NCBI GenBank assembly: GCA_964645535.1 | Contig: CAZYCQ010000030.1 | Span: 1 to 41,192 of the forward strand | DNA: 41,192 nucleotides | Direction: 5' to 3' | Source of the DNA: an uncultured archaeon | GTDB taxonomy: Archaea; Asgardarchaeota; Heimdallarchaeia; Heimdallarchaeales; Kariarchaeaceae | Shown here: positions 7,258 through 10,010 of the stretch, piece after piece | How positions within the stretch are numbered: position 1 is the first letter of the stretch | Layout of the letters: every line of letters begins with the position of its first letter | Translations under genes and position numbers: made by a program | The notes under the pieces: generated by a model | The model's input: the letters and a program-made list of their open reading frames with translations, nothing else | What the model was told of the DNA's origin: nothing | The model's database searches: none

Positions 7258-9981
7258 TCATTTTGGCAATTGTCTGCTCTTTCCTCGTGCGTAATCAGAA
7301 ATGACGATGTTTCCAAGAATTTTCACGAAGTATTCGGAACCACTTGCTATGGCTACATAATCGTTATTCCCTTCATCAATGGTGCCAAGAAGAATCTCTT
7401 CCCCTTCCCGTTCACAACCGATGAAATCGGGAAGTGTACCTCCAAGCCCCCCTCTTTGAATTGCTCGCAAAGTCACGTTTGCGGGTGCATTATGCATTTT
7501 TTCAATCCAATCCTTGTGAGTGATTTCATCAATATATGAAACAATGGTGACTTGAACAGTACGTGGTAGTTGAAGGATTCTCTGTTCATTAACCATATCA
7601 ACAGAAGGAACCAAGATAGTTGCCTTGCTTTTGATGCGTCCCAACATGTCATTGATGTATTCAATTATTGCCTGTTTTCCCACAACCGTTGTGGTTTTGA
7701 TTTGGGGGGTTTCTGTTGTGTCAATCAGTTTTGAGAACCCCATCAGCGATTCATTGAGCCCTTGAAGGCTTGAAACCAACATATCGGAATTTGAAATAAA
7801 GTTTCCGACATATTGATCCAGAAGAGCCCTTGATCTTTCAAGATGGGCTGTGCTGACTCCTGTAGCAACGTCCTTGACTTTATCAACAGTGGCAAAGCCA
7901 TTTTCCTTGATCTGCTCGTTGTGTTCATTTAATTTTGAGATAAGTAGATCGGTCAATTGGGAGGTTCCGGTAGCCATTTCCTCTGCCAAAGTGGTCGAAA
8001 GAGCCTTGAGTCTTTGGGAAAATCCATCAAGATCTGATTTGAAAGCTTCAACCAAGTTCTTTTGAGCAAGTGTTTCAGTCTCCGTGATGCCTTCAAATTC
8101 ATTTTTTAGATTTTCCAGATGGGAAGAAAGGGATTCTGTAATTTGAATCACCTTGTCATTTAAACTTGAATTGGTCTCAGCAACCTTGGTAGAGATTTGA
8201 TTTTTCAACATCGAGAAACTTGAGTCTACATCTTCCAATGAATGTCCAATGTCCTGTTCAATGTCCGTCAATATCGAATTTAATTGGGCATCTATTTGGG
8301 TTCCTTGTTCGGTAAGCTGGTTTACAAATGCTTCCTTTTCGCCTTGCAATGATTCATGAAATGCTTGGAGAGTGGCATTGAGGTTTTGGAGGAATTGTTC
8401 AATTGATTGGTCTATTTGTATCCTGTTTTCGGCAAGAGAGTCTGTCGATTGTGAAATATGATTTTTTGTCGAACTCAGCAATTCAGATATCTTTTGCTGT
8501 AAACCAGTCACTTGAGCATTTATATTGCCGAACGCCTGTTCCATTTGTGCGGCCAGGTTGGTTTTGATGCCTTCAAGATTCTGGATCTGTTGTTGTTGCA
8601 GACTATCCAGTTCTTGGTTTTTTTGTGCATTCAATTGATTGATGGTCTCAATTGCCTGTGATTGGAGTTCTCCCTGTTTGTTTCTTGCAATATCAAGCTT
8701 TTGTTTCAGGGTTTCAGAGAGAGTTGTATTCAGAGTTTCAATGGTCTCCTGTGCCTGTTGGAGCAATCGGGCAAATTCCTGTTCCATTGACTGTTTAAGT
8801 TCCACCTCCTTTTGTTTGATGATTGAATTGAAATCATTTTCCAGAAGGGAGAAATGTTCCAGAACCGATTGGCTGGTATTCTCGACAAATGTTGTACCAG
8901 AGGAATGGATTGTAGACATTTGATCTTTTCCAGCCTGAATGGCGGTTGACAGAGCATTCTGCAATCCGATGGTTCCCTCATCCAATTTCTGCTGTAATGA
9001 CTCCTTAGATGATGAAAGCATATCTAGTCCCTGACCCAAAGATTCGGCAACCTCAGATGAACTTGTTTCTAGACCGGAGGATGCATCATCAAGGGTTTTT
9101 TTTGCTTGATCCAAGGATGTGTCTATCTTTTCCTTAATTCCCGCAGTCCTGTCCATGAATTCACCATGATGTTTTTGTGATAGTTGGATCAGCTTTTCAT
9201 AATTTTCCTCTGCCATTCCCTTCATATTGTCAATCTGGGATTTGTTGACATTTGATTGACGTCCAATCAGTCCCCGTTCGCTCTCTCTCAAGATTTCAAG
9301 TCTTTCCTTGATTGAGTTGGCGGTTGCTTCAACCGTTTCCAAATCCACTGAAATTTGGGGTGGAGTAATCTGAGTAGATTCAAGAAATGTCCGCAATGAT
9401 TCGGAGATTTTTGTGTCCAATGTGGTTTTTGCTGAGTCCAGCCTATTGGTAAAGTGTTGGATCAATTCTGTAGCTCGTCTATCAAGATCAGTCTTGTTTT
9501 GTCCAATCTCATCCAGATATTGGTCTTTATTGGAATTCAGTGCCTGCATTGCGGTTTGTGCATTTTCATTGATTCCTTTGGCAGTTTCATCGGATTTTAC
9601 GGAGATTTCATGACGGACGGTTTCAAGGGTTCCCTCCAAACCGCTGAGTAGTTTTTCGGACTCTTTTTTTATTTCATCAAGGGTTCTCTCTTTTTCTTCT
9701 TGGAATTCTCTCCCCAATGTGGAGATTGTCCCCAATGAACCCTGCACTTTTTCAATTGCCGTATCGACCGGCAATAGAGCAGCAAAACGATCCTGCAAGC
9801 CCGGAACGCGTCGTACAAGCTTTTTTGTTTCAAGTGTTTGAAGGGCATCATTGACAGCAGAGCTCCCAAAGCCTGTAATCGATCGAATTTCACCACCCGA
9901 AAGCTGACCACTGACCAATAGAACCCTGTAAATTTCTGCTTCTTCATGGGAAAGTCCCAAGGAACTTAAAACGTCACTCAT
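7258..9981 (-). CDS. TrmB-family wHTH protein with ~680-aa helical/coiled-coil insert and C-terminal TrmB effector-like domain
   Basis: N-terminus LSSLGLSHEEAEIYRVLL..G.LS..EI...L..L..K.LV is a TrmB wHTH. Long Q/E/L/S-rich, nearly proline-free helical middle. C-terminus VVGKQAIIEYINDMLGRIKSKATILVP resembles the TrmB sensor domain. Confidence 0.75.
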   Translation of the reverse strand: MSDVLSSLGLSHEEAEIYRVLLVSGQLSGGEIRSITGFGSSAVNDALQTLETKKLVRRVPGLQDRFAALLPVDTAIEKVQGSLGTISTLGREFQEEKERTLDEIKKESEKLLSGLEGTLETVRHEISVKSDETAKGINENAQTAMQALNSNKDQYLDEIGQNKTDLDRRATELIQHFTNRLDSAKTTLDTKISESLRTFLESTQITPPQISVDLETVEATANSIKERLEILRESERGLIGRQSNVNKSQIDNMKGMAEENYEKLIQLSQKHHGEFMDRTAGIKEKIDTSLDQAKKTLDDASSGLETSSSEVAESLGQGLDMLSSSKESLQQKLDEGTIGLQNALSTAIQAGKDQMSTIHSSGTTFVENTSQSVLEHFSLLENDFNSIIKQKEVELKQSMEQEFARLLQQAQETIETLNTTLSETLKQKLDIARNKQGELQSQAIETINQLNAQKNQELDSLQQQQIQNLEGIKTNLAAQMEQAFGNINAQVTGLQQKISELLSSTKNHISQSTDSLAENRIQIDQSIEQFLQNLNATLQAFHESLQGEKEAFVNQLTEQGTQIDAQLNSILTDIEQDIGHSLEDVDSSFSMLKNQISTKVAETNSSLNDKVIQITESLSSHLENLKNEFEGITETETLAQKNLVEAFKSDLDGFSQRLKALSTTLAEEMATGTSQLTDLLISKLNEHNEQIKENGFATVDKVKDVATGVSTAHLERSRALLDQYVGNFISNSDMLVSSLQGLNESLMGFSKLIDTTETPQIKTTTVVGKQAIIEYINDMLGRIKSKATILVPSVDMVNEQRILQLPRTVQVTIVSYIDEITHKDWIEKMHNAPANVTLRAIQRGGLGGTLPDFIGCEREGEEILLGTIDEGNNDYVAIASGSEYFVKILGNIVISDYARGKSRQLPK

Positions 9982-10003: not shown

Positions 10004-10010
10004 TTATAAG
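10004..10010 (-). promoter_or_regulatory. Putative TATA box of the TrmB-like gene
   Basis: CTTATAA on the minus strand, 29-23 nt upstream of ATG 9981. Confidence 0.55.

Follow-up and report, generated by a model that had tools for sequence, protein, structure and literature searches.

A TrmBL2 relative of a Heimdall-group archaeon with a giant 11-residue-repeat rod and a conserved antiparallel charge register

In the 41,192-nucleotide stretch of DNA that was analyzed (the window), the open reading frame at positions 7258-9981 of the minus strand starts with ATG and encodes a protein of 907 amino acids, which consists of a TrmB winged-helix head, a helical rod of ~685 residues and a C-terminal PLD-like domain. 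The protein is a relative of TrmBL2 in which the short pairing helix has grown to ~685 residues of helix with an 11-residue repeat, and among its orthologues opposite charges are enriched at positions of the two rod halves that face each other in an antiparallel register. We put at roughly even chances the reading in which this is a TrmBL2-type DNA-binding protein with a fold-back rod, whose antiparallel halves place the head beside the C-domain, and which serves as a DNA-anchored spacer or tether. The protein carries the database label 'hypothetical protein', and a literature search found no paper that describes this fold-back rod protein or its paralogues.

Terminal domains and relation to TrmBL2

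The head (residues 1-71; positions 9769..9981, minus strand) is a TrmB-type winged helix-turn-helix. Residues 5-68 score 37.8 bits with Pfam TrmB (PF01978), for which the cut-off is 25.6, and the heads of the orthologues score 35.7-39.1 bits with the same family. A profile of the N-terminal 130 residues in 15 orthologues from across the class finds TrmBL2 in the PDB with an E-value of 1.7e-9 (chain residues 11-104) and TrmB with 2.1e-8. In structural comparison by VIA, residues 1-71 resemble MarR/wHTH folds with Z up to about 10. E14, Y18, G25, L27, E31 and P71 are invariant in the head across the class. The head overall is not basic, with a pI of 5.7 and a net charge of -1.

The C-domain (residues 760-907; positions 7261..7704, minus strand) is modelled by AlphaFold2 as a PLD-like fold (pTM 0.80, pLDDT 82.6). 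The best structural matches of this model are TrmBL2 and TrmB, and the C-terminus is therefore TrmB-like by fold: VIA places model residues 760-901 on TrmBL2 chain residues 123-261 (Z 13.3, rmsd 2.4-2.6 Å over 128-130 residues) and also finds TrmB (Z 13.0, chain residues 110-239), whilst Foldseek gives E-values of 4e-7 and 8e-7 to TrmBL2 and TrmB, respectively. By sequence, the C-domain finds nothing meaningful in Pfam or the PDB (S100-A2 at E 0.74). Both terminal assignments had been made in an initial annotation of this DNA; the winged helix is supported by the Pfam and profile matches, and the TrmB-like C-terminal domain holds by fold and not by sequence. The orthologue alignment shows that the C-domain carries an invariant motif, LPDFIGCEREGEEILLGT. 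The catalytic phospholipase D motif HxK(x)4D is absent from the 907-aa protein, and the His of a local 'THKD' is not kept among the orthologues. The last element of the PLD-like domain is also the end of the protein and no sugar-binding barrel follows it; the sugar-binding family of TrmB regulators (Regulator_TrmB, PF11495) gives no match to E = 1 with the whole protein or to E = 10 with the C-domain.

The order of the domains is that of TrmBL2 (TK0471 / PF0496; PDB 5bpd, 5bpi, 5bqt and 5box), a chromatin protein of Thermococcales. It was shown that TrmBL2 binds DNA through paired heads, has a parallel dimerisation helix, coats DNA non-specifically and forms tetramers (PMC4877046). Both proteins have a winged-helix head, an amphipathic pairing helix and a PLD-like C-domain, and both are without a sugar-binding barrel. 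The helix follows directly after the head in both, as the alignment covers TrmBL2 chain residues 77-104 and the AlphaFold2 helix starts from residue 72; residues 72-99 are homologous to the TrmBL2 dimerisation helix, with the profile alignment extending to TrmBL2 residue 104. The difference lies in the length, since TrmBL2 has ~262 amino acids with ~47 residues from head to C-domain, whereas the protein described here has 907 with ~688 residues between them. The two C-domains are similar by fold with no detectable sequence similarity. TrmB (PDB 3qph and 2f5t), a sugar-sensing regulator of Thermococcales, shares the head, and the first subdomain of its sugar-binding region has the same fold as the C-domain. 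Unlike TrmB, the 907-aa protein lacks the second (barrel) subdomain and PF11495, shows no sign of sugar sensing and contains the giant helix.

The initial annotation had also set the protein apart from SMC proteins, and this agrees with our searches: it has neither an ABC ATPase nor a hinge, Walker A, HKD (H.K....D) and CxxC motifs are absent in a motif scan, and SMC families are missing among its Pfam and NCBIfam matches. The tails of ZorA and subunit b of ATP synthase were matched in NCBIfam with E-values of 4e-5 to 4e-4, far under the cut-offs of these families, and we rejected both as compositional coiled-coil matches. The protein has no membrane segment, with a top 19-residue hydropathy of 1.38. 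Immediately past the stop codon there are two inverted repeats with arms of 8 nt and 11 nt (7190..7256), which are a candidate transcript end or structure.

Period, charge and conservation of the helical rod

The rod is encoded, as is the whole protein, on the minus strand. Its N arm begins with a helix predicted by AlphaFold2 at residues 72-202 (9376..9768), followed by the TPPQ linker at residues 203-214 (9340..9375), which contains P207 and P208 and shows a pLDDT below 50 at 202-213. The remainder of the N arm (residues 215-384; 8830..9339) is a hendecad helix with an AlphaFold2 break at 264-270. It leads to a conserved central island (residues 385-427; 8701..8829), with a symmetry centre at about 410 and an AlphaFold2 break at 408-411; pLDDT is under 50 at 409-414. 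The C arm (residues 428-755; 7717..8700) is again a hendecad helix, with an AlphaFold2 break at 552-555 and a more conserved neck at 715-755. Conservation of the central island is 1.0-1.2 against about 0.2 in its flanks, and the neck at residues 80-110 reaches 1.0-1.4 against about 0.2 across the rod.

Prolines are found at residues 60, 71, 207, 208, 759 and beyond. The proline positions agree with the earlier description of TPPQ as the sole internal proline site, followed by about 550 Pro-free residues (550 by our count). The linker is also the only conserved helix breaker of the rod: its region contains G or P in 85% of the orthologues and is a site of indels, and the hydrophobic phase shifts there by +88 to +121 degrees.

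Analysis of the L/I/V/M/F pattern of residues 76-760 results in a single Fourier peak at 3.645 residues with a power of 12.3, compared with 0.14 at 3.5 residues and a top value of 2.1 in 500 shuffles. BLOSUM autocorrelation has its maxima at lags 33, 11 and 22, and the period falls at 3.645-3.68 in 28/28 orthologues tested. An 11-residue spacing had previously been seen by eye, with a Fourier comparison of 3.5 and 3.67 residues proposed as a check, and the peak lies far above chance on the side of the hendecad. The hydrophobic stripe is narrow, occupying about 3 of 11 sectors with 26% L/I/V/M/F; Lys and Arg stand beside it and Asp and Glu are on the opposite side of the helix. The net charge of the rod is -46, and Ser, Thr, Asn and Gln are plentiful.

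Such a pattern can also be read as an apolipoprotein- or LEA-like amphipathic helix of 11-mers lying along a lipid surface, in which case the protein would be a DNA-membrane tether or the coat of a lipid particle. The exchangeable apolipoproteins (PF01442; ApoA-IV, PDB 3s84) share the 11-residue amphipathic periodicity and a weak sequence match: Pfam Apolipoprotein is found at 68.8 bits and ApoA-IV in the PDB at E 8e-4, and both the period near 11/3 and the arrangement of basic and acidic residues around the hydrophobic face fit this reading. However, the Pfam score stays below the family cut-off of 90 bits, the Pro-punctuated 22-mers are absent (there is no Pro between residues 208 and 759), and a narrow hydrophobic face, an acidic rod and the lack of a membrane segment all speak against lipid. 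The antiparallel register described below indicates helix-helix pairing, which the evidence favours over lipid binding. We find the lipid reading extremely improbable; of the apolipoprotein-like spacing that was initially proposed, the 11-residue period stands and its lipid or membrane meaning does not hold well.

Antiparallel register of the two halves

In 17 orthologues with a sequence identity of 21-30%, there is an enrichment of opposite charges between residues i and 821-i (+/-3). When charge complementarity was scanned over about 970 centres, the highest z, 5.18, was obtained at 410.5, while the next unrelated centre reaches 2.75 and the highest z among 60 column permutations is 4.42. 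After removal of the column means centre 410.5 is still first (z 3.68), and the register signal is positive in 17/17 sequences and in each distance bin to 340 residues. Two other orthologue groups have their top centres at 330.5 and 358.5 with rod midpoints at 336.5 and 363.5, that is, 5-6 residues off the rod midpoint in each. A palindromic scan of the hydrophobic pattern is consistent with this centre and not decisive, as no centre stands out in single sequences, and in the orthologue average centre 410 is first but tied with 536-547. In the three short orthologues the changes in arm length match only in part (-22/-10, -22/-3 and -30/-18 residues). An HMM of the central island matched its own family only and could not be used to anchor the arm lengths of the 750-aa or the 800-aa group.

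The full-length AlphaFold2 model, made with 15 sequences and moderately confident (pTM 0.33, pLDDT 67.9), contains helices at residues 72-202, 215-263, 271-407, 412-551 and 556-755. The stretches of low pLDDT at which the helix is broken (259-275, 409-414 and 545-560) are arranged mirror-symmetrically around residue 410. Compact antiparallel four-helix bundles can be superimposed on the model over their full length, and the first and last residues of the matched stretch always sum to about 815-830; for example, 4uos_A lies on model residues 161..664 (Z 13.1, rmsd 2.7 Å, 188/188 residues) and 2lff_A on 211..606 (rmsd 2.5 Å, 114/115 residues). This is a monomer run, which cannot reveal intermolecular pairing. 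Compact bundles in the middle had been named by the initial annotation as evidence against its rod; AlphaFold2 gives a long antiparallel bundle and not a single extended helix, and this objection to the rod applies in part. In the four-helix version of AlphaFold2 there would be additional contacts around centres 267 and 553. The charges at these centres are weakly complementary (z 1.0-1.9), and for this reason the four-helix version is not preferred over a two-helix arm.

When residues 1-202 and residues 618-907 are co-folded by ESMFold2, the score is 0.37 ('weak support') against 0.00 for the best control; the runs share at least 70% of their contacts and the partner pLDDT is at least 79. The mark used is reached by 58/80 solved complexes and by 2/110 mismatched pairs, and it is reached at a score of 0.60 or less by 7/80 solved complexes plus both mismatches. 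This pass may reflect memory, since the structure of TrmBL2 has already been solved. Taken together, the charge register, the symmetry and fold matches of the AlphaFold2 model and the weak co-fold suggest that the head adjoins the C-domain. The same charge register, AlphaFold2 breaks and weak co-fold pair the two halves antiparallel, and the evidence does not support the initial proposal, in which ~100 nm separate the head from a "distal" domain.

These data also bear on a parallel in-register coiled-coil dimer of ~100 nm, with the heads at one end and the C-domains at the other. Such a dimer would follow from the helix of TrmB and TrmBL2, which is a parallel dimerisation helix (PMC4877046) and the start of which is conserved here, and the rod has no sequence-level breaker besides TPPQ. 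Along the rod the hendecads keep a coherent phase, yet when random offsets were placed between the five AlphaFold2 helices and the period was re-fitted, 9% of the trials equalled the observed power, so that a single continuous helix cannot be argued from the global phase coherence. With a parallel dimer no complementarity between i and 821-i is expected, yet this register forms a single sharp peak in three orthologue groups, and such a dimer also leaves unexplained the conserved island at the exact centre and the mirror-symmetric AlphaFold2 breaks. We consider this arrangement quite improbable.

Another hypothesis is that the antiparallel register is formed between chains. In a bipolar antiparallel dimer (or tetramer), extended chains of ~100 nm would lie head-to-tail with residue i facing 821-i of the partner, each end would combine the head of one chain with the C-domain of the other, and the complex could link two DNA segments while keeping them a constant distance apart. 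This accounts for the same charge register and midpoint symmetry and, weakly, for the co-folding of the N end and the C end as separate chains, and the central island would be the two-fold axis. It is also the better fit to the centre of the rod. No Gly or Pro is present at residues 404-412, where the fold-back would turn, or at the AlphaFold2 break 552-555, in any orthologue, and the phase jump through the centre is -36 to -48, -52 and -13 to -17 degrees in the three orthologue groups, within or near background; a continuous helix would give the same picture of a near-unbroken hydrophobic phase. Against the bipolar dimer, it would have one winged helix per end, whereas TrmBL2 binds DNA via paired heads (PMC4877046), and the start of the rod retains sequence similarity to the parallel dimerisation helix of TrmBL2. 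AlphaFold2 also folds the chain back, though the monomer run could not do otherwise. In the same genome, a 1477-aa paralogue (L001 1390-5823) has a clear turn motif at the midpoint: the basic, Gly-containing KGMFGKK lies precisely in the middle and follows 205 residues without Gly. We counted this in favour of the fold-back in particular; the 907-aa group differs from it in being shorter and in having no explicit Gly/Pro turn at the midpoint. Natural antiparallel coiled coils of great length mostly form within one chain, and this was counted against the bipolar dimer as well. The bipolar dimer is a possible arrangement, and we hold it to be clearly less probable than the fold-back.

In the preferred fold-back reading, a pairing helix of ~47 residues in TrmBL2 would have been lengthened to about 685 hendecad amphipathic residues, and the N half (72-407) would pair antiparallel with the C half (412-755) with i + j at ~821. 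This would bring head and C-domain next to each other at one end, an arrangement also found in TrmBL2, and the acidic rod would project from them. The most likely form would be a single chain bent back at the conserved centre, giving an arm of ~50 nm; the version of AlphaFold2, with four helices, would be shorter at roughly 30 nm. The chains probably dimerise via a TrmBL2-like neck.

Distribution, length constraint and possible role

The gene is found in 78/83 genomes of its Heimdall-group class and in 14/14 of the high-quality ones, and its orthologue group is restricted to this one class. Orthologue lengths are 747-925 aa, with 904-913 aa in 11/15. The C arm (408 to 759) measures 351-352 residues in 16/20 orthologues, and most indels are of 3, 4, 5, 7, 11, 21, 22 or 32 residues. 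The length of the rod is fixed within lineages despite a sequence identity of 21-30%.

One could still suppose an ordinary gene-specific regulator of TrmB type, in which the long helix is a tolerated linker without a function of its own. The TrmB head and the C-domain are both present, and the genome has many TrmB paralogues, including ordinary TrmB genes of 258-340 aa. Yet a tolerated linker would not hold its length within a few residues at 21-30% identity, the period is kept in every orthologue, the indels are mostly helix-compatible and the pairing register is conserved. The protein also lacks the sugar-binding PF11495, and no conserved target operon adjoins the gene, which is standalone and has, in the orthologue contexts, no neighbour conserved beyond family level. 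The neighbours in this window do not recur beside orthologues except for a 46-residue amidohydrolase fragment at a contig end (L019). We judge an ordinary regulator highly improbable.

The ESM Atlas holds no model of the 907-aa protein, and its feature neighbours there are all 'hypothetical protein' clusters of Promethearchaeota. The sequencing runs that hold the gene are DNA runs of one hot-spring metagenome study only, with no RNA run among those listed. Paralogous giant rods occur in 195/251 Asgard genomes sampled, and the Asgard origin implied by the initial annotation is correct. Head, hendecad rod and PLD-like C-domain are all present in these paralogues, and their C-domains are related to the one described here (E 1.8e-11).

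In the arms of SMC, Rad50 and MukB, the end pieces are united through antiparallel self-pairing of a long helix, and the length of the arm is conserved. The 907-aa protein is alike in both respects if its ends are united by a self-paired antiparallel helix, and by analogy with these proteins the TPPQ break in one arm may act as a joint. Unlike them, it has no ABC ATPase head (Walker A), no hinge and no zinc hook; a TrmB winged helix and a PLD-like domain take the place of the heads, and its repeat is almost purely hendecad. The coils of eukaryotic TRIM proteins are antiparallel dimers of about 17 nm. They are not homologous to the rod, and the likeness is in a helix pattern that is symmetric about its centre, which permits antiparallel pairing and sets the terminal domains at defined distances.

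The length of the rod stays constant while its sequence drifts, and we infer from this that the rod is most likely a DNA-anchored structural spacer or tether, not a ligand-sensing switch; the initial annotation had named scaffold, tether and filament as candidate roles. The rod proteins are soluble and cofactor-free and their predicted shape is simple, which makes them directly testable. The charge-register scan is a cheap test for antiparallel pairing that requires no structures and can be used across the whole superfamily.

TrmBL2 is one of the few known non-histone archaeal chromatin proteins, and in the relative described here the pairing helix extends over tens of nanometres as a rod. Should this rod serve as a spacer or bridge anchored on DNA, the lineage closest to eukaryotes would possess a nucleoid-organising element of a new kind. 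A wider proposal, which we regard as unlikely, is that acidic rods of fixed length, attached to DNA through the TrmBL2-type head, are a structural element of the Asgard nucleoid, forming a spacer or brush layer or, if the chains lie head-to-tail, bipolar DNA bridges of 100 nm. If this is true, the brush or spacer layer would define how far the chromosome lies from other structures of the cell, and the bipolar bridges would keep DNA segments at a given spacing. In either case, the archaea most closely related to eukaryotes would have a prokaryotic counterpart of the eukaryotic chromatin-scaffold or tether proteins.

End domains of the TrmBL2 type

The minus-strand reading frame at window positions 7258-9981 encodes a protein of 907 residues, of which residues 5-68 match the Pfam TrmB winged helix with 37.8 bits (cut-off 25.6). 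A head profile was built from residues 1-130 of 15 orthologues from across the class and run against the PDB; its top match is TrmBL2, the chromatin protein of Thermococcales (E 1.7e-9), aligned over chain residues 11-104, which cover the head and the beginning of the TrmBL2 pairing helix, and the second match is TrmB (E 2.1e-8). Sequence searches of Pfam and the PDB with the last 155 residues gave no match. The model of the C-terminal domain, a five-sequence fold (pLDDT 82.6, pTM 0.80), is PLD-like and finds TrmBL2 as its top structural match (VIA Z 13.3, rmsd 2.4-2.6 A over 128-130 residues, model 760-901 on chain 123-261), with a Z of 13.0 for TrmB; the HKD motif is absent from the protein. 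Both end domains proposed in the initial annotation are thus real, the TrmB head by sequence and the TrmB-like C-terminal domain by fold.

TrmBL2 and TrmB are the nearest known proteins. Since the sugar-binding barrel of TrmB and a match to PF11495 are both missing, the rod protein is of the TrmBL2 type. The head belongs to the TrmB family, as does the C-terminal domain by fold; the 907-aa protein lacks the compact size that defines known TrmB and TrmBL2 members. Databases label such rod proteins as hypothetical, and our literature search found no published description of them.

Another long TrmB-headed protein of the same genome has 677 aa (contig C36:24114-26147; locus L002 2115-4148), with a Pfam TrmB score of 24.9 bits, slightly below the cut-off; its helical middle is rich in Pro and its C-terminus is TrmB-like. 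Its gene lies 7 bp upstream of two same-strand genes resembling ribosomal protein genes.

A hendecad rod of conserved length

Prolines occur at residues 60, 71, 207, 208, 759 and beyond, and the proline-free stretch of ~550 residues noticed earlier after the TPPQ linker (residues 203-214) was counted at 550. Fourier analysis of the L/I/V/M/F pattern over residues 76-760 gives one sharp peak at 3.645 residues (power 12.3; shuffle maximum 2.1, n=500), with a power of only 0.14 at 3.5 residues. The 11-residue spacing that had been called by eye, with a proposed check of 3.5 versus 3.67, is therefore borne out. BLOSUM autocorrelation of the rod tops at lags 33, 11 and 22, and a hydrophobic period of 3.645-3.68 residues was seen in 28/28 orthologues tested. 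The hydrophobic stripe occupies about 3 of 11 angular sectors (64, 80 and 53% L/I/V/M/F), with Lys and Arg beside it and Asp, Glu, Ser, Thr, Asn and Gln on the opposite face. The net charge of the rod is -46 and the pI of the whole protein 4.8; no membrane segment was found. A Pfam Apolipoprotein match of 68.8 bits lies under the 90-bit cut-off and reflects the common 11-mer period, so that membership of this family was rejected.

A word-indexed search returned only two full-length relatives. An exhaustive C-domain profile search returned 165 proteins, whose lengths of 98-2122 aa include fragments at the short end; fourteen of them are full-length representatives of the orthologue, with 880-943 aa. 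Of the 83 genomes of the class, 78 contain the orthologue, as do all 14 high-quality ones. Frame lengths differ by family within the class: about 907-925 aa in f1 and f4, 747-766 aa in f3, 802-819 aa in f5, and about 752-763 plus about 787-798 aa in f7. The f7 genomes (G071-G082) carry two copies, one of each length (e.g., locus L033 5805-8063 and locus L034 5754-8111), unlike most other families, which have one. The wider C-domain family occurs in 195 of 251 Asgard genomes with frames of 750-1796 aa; named fragments come from Heimdallarchaeota MAGs, and the rod gene itself from a hot-spring metagenome.

Length is kept at 904-913 aa in 11/15 orthologues despite 21-30% identity, rod indels are mostly of 3, 4, 5, 7, 11, 21, 22 or 32 residues, and 16 of 20 sequences have 351-352 residues between the central anchor and the C-domain. 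Both end domains are highly conserved and the rod very little, apart from its necks at 80-110 and at 715-760 and the central island at 385-427; a central region is likewise conserved in the 750-aa orthologue group.

The rod gene stands alone, as no neighbouring gene is conserved above family level. Two inverted repeats at window 7190-7256, one of 8 nt with 100% complementarity and one of 11 nt with 91%, occupy the 69 bp that separate the stop codon of the rod gene from the following amidohydrolase gene, and may mark a transcript end. A TTATAA noticed by eye at 10004-10009 on the minus strand precedes the ATG by 23-28 nt, a spacing that would suit the TATA box of an archaeal gene with a leaderless or very short-leader transcript. 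Three co-oriented downstream genes (window 154-6261) encode large Ig-like/carboxypeptidase-regulatory-like repeat proteins of 672, 1004 and 399 aa, probably surface proteins with no relation to the rod gene.

Antiparallel pairing of the rod halves

The initial annotation placed the head and the distal domain up to 100 nm apart. We scanned 17 non-redundant orthologues, mapped on the reference, for the antiparallel register in which opposite charges face each other, a measure that is independent of structure. Among ~970 centres there is one sharp peak, at 410.5 (z 5.18), followed by its adjacent centres, the best unrelated centre reaching 2.75 and the maximum of 60 column permutations 4.42. This centre remains on top with conserved column means alone (z 4.13) and with the means removed, which leaves covariation (z 3.68), and its signal is positive in 17/17 sequences and in every distance bin to 340 residues from the centre. 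In the other groups the top centre also lies close to the rod midpoint (330.5 vs 336.5 in the 750-aa group; 358.5 vs 363.5 in the 800-aa group). For the part of the rod N-terminal of TPPQ the best centre is displaced by ~5 residues, which fits an extended linker of ~12 residues in place of about two hendecads of helix. Such a linker would also account for an N arm that has 11-15 residues fewer than the C arm.

A full-length AlphaFold2 run with 15 orthologues (pLDDT 67.9, pTM 0.33) gave rod helices at 72-202, 215-263, 271-407, 412-551 and 556-755, with low-confidence breaks (259-275, 409-414, 545-560) that form a mirror-symmetric set centred on residue 410; the midpoint of the rod is 413. In a structure search without Foldseek, compact antiparallel four-helix bundles can be aligned in full to the model, such as 4uos_A (Z 13.1, rmsd 2.7 A, 188/188 residues, model range 161..664) and 2lff_A (114/115 residues, rmsd 2.5 A, model range 211..606), and in each of these matches the two ends of the model range add up to about 815-830. 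These ranges suggest for the model an up-down-up-down bundle, ~30 nm long, with its chain ends together; the charge complementarity of its extra four-helix contacts is weak (z 1.0-1.9). Co-folding of residues 1-202 with 618-907 in ESMFold2 scored 0.37, the highest of three controls being 0.00 (at least 70% contact agreement between runs, partner pLDDT at least 79), which earns a "weak support" mark reached by 58/80 solved complexes and 2/110 mismatched pairs, and at scores up to 0.60 by 7/80 solved complexes and both mismatches; this pass may stem from memorisation, because the TrmBL2 structure is solved.

The charge register, the symmetric breaks and, weakly, the co-folding of the ends speak against the 100 nm separation. 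Our conclusion is an antiparallel pairing of the N half (72-407) with the C half (412-755) along the full length, which puts the head and C-domain side by side; a parallel dimer of extended chains is very improbable.

Another question is whether the pairing occurs within one chain or between two, as the register signal is alike for a one-chain hairpin and for two extended head-to-tail chains. A fold-back within one chain is the most likely form, at about even odds. AlphaFold2 folds the chain back, in a monomer run that is biased that way, and the beginning of the rod resembles the parallel dimerisation helix of TrmBL2, which uses paired heads for DNA binding (PMC4877046). In a 1477-aa paralogue of the same genome, too, 205 residues without Gly are followed by a basic motif that contains Gly and lies exactly at the midpoint of the protein. 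However, Gly and Pro are absent at 404-412 and 552-555 in every orthologue, TPPQ being the only conserved helix breaker of the rod, and the hydrophobic phase runs nearly continuously across the centre in all three orthologue groups; a head-to-tail dimer of two extended chains is accordingly conceivable, if rather doubtful.

In the paralogue (contig C65:3389-9963; locus L001 1390-7964, with two upstream genes), whose midpoint motif is KGMFGKK, a hendecad helix of ~1250 residues joins a TrmB head to a PLD-like C-domain. Immediately upstream on the same strand are a gene for a 437-aa all-helical protein and another gene.

A possible spacer, tether or scaffold

In the working that we propose, a TrmBL2-like unit of head, neck and C-domain would bind DNA via its winged helices, probably as a dimer through the neck, and the acidic rod, expected not to stick to DNA, would project a fixed distance of ~50 nm as a two-helix arm (0.15 nm per residue). 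The central island (385-427) would form the distal tip in a two-helix fold-back, the two-fold axis in a head-to-tail dimer, and would sit near the neck in the four-helix version of AlphaFold2. By analogy, the rod protein may work like the antiparallel arms of SMC and Rad50, yet it is without any defining SMC feature; Walker A and CxxC are absent, in agreement with the earlier remark that SMC Walker motifs and a hinge are lacking. Because length, period and pairing register are kept while the sequence drifts, a role as spacer, tether or scaffold would fit this protein better than that of a ligand-controlled regulator.
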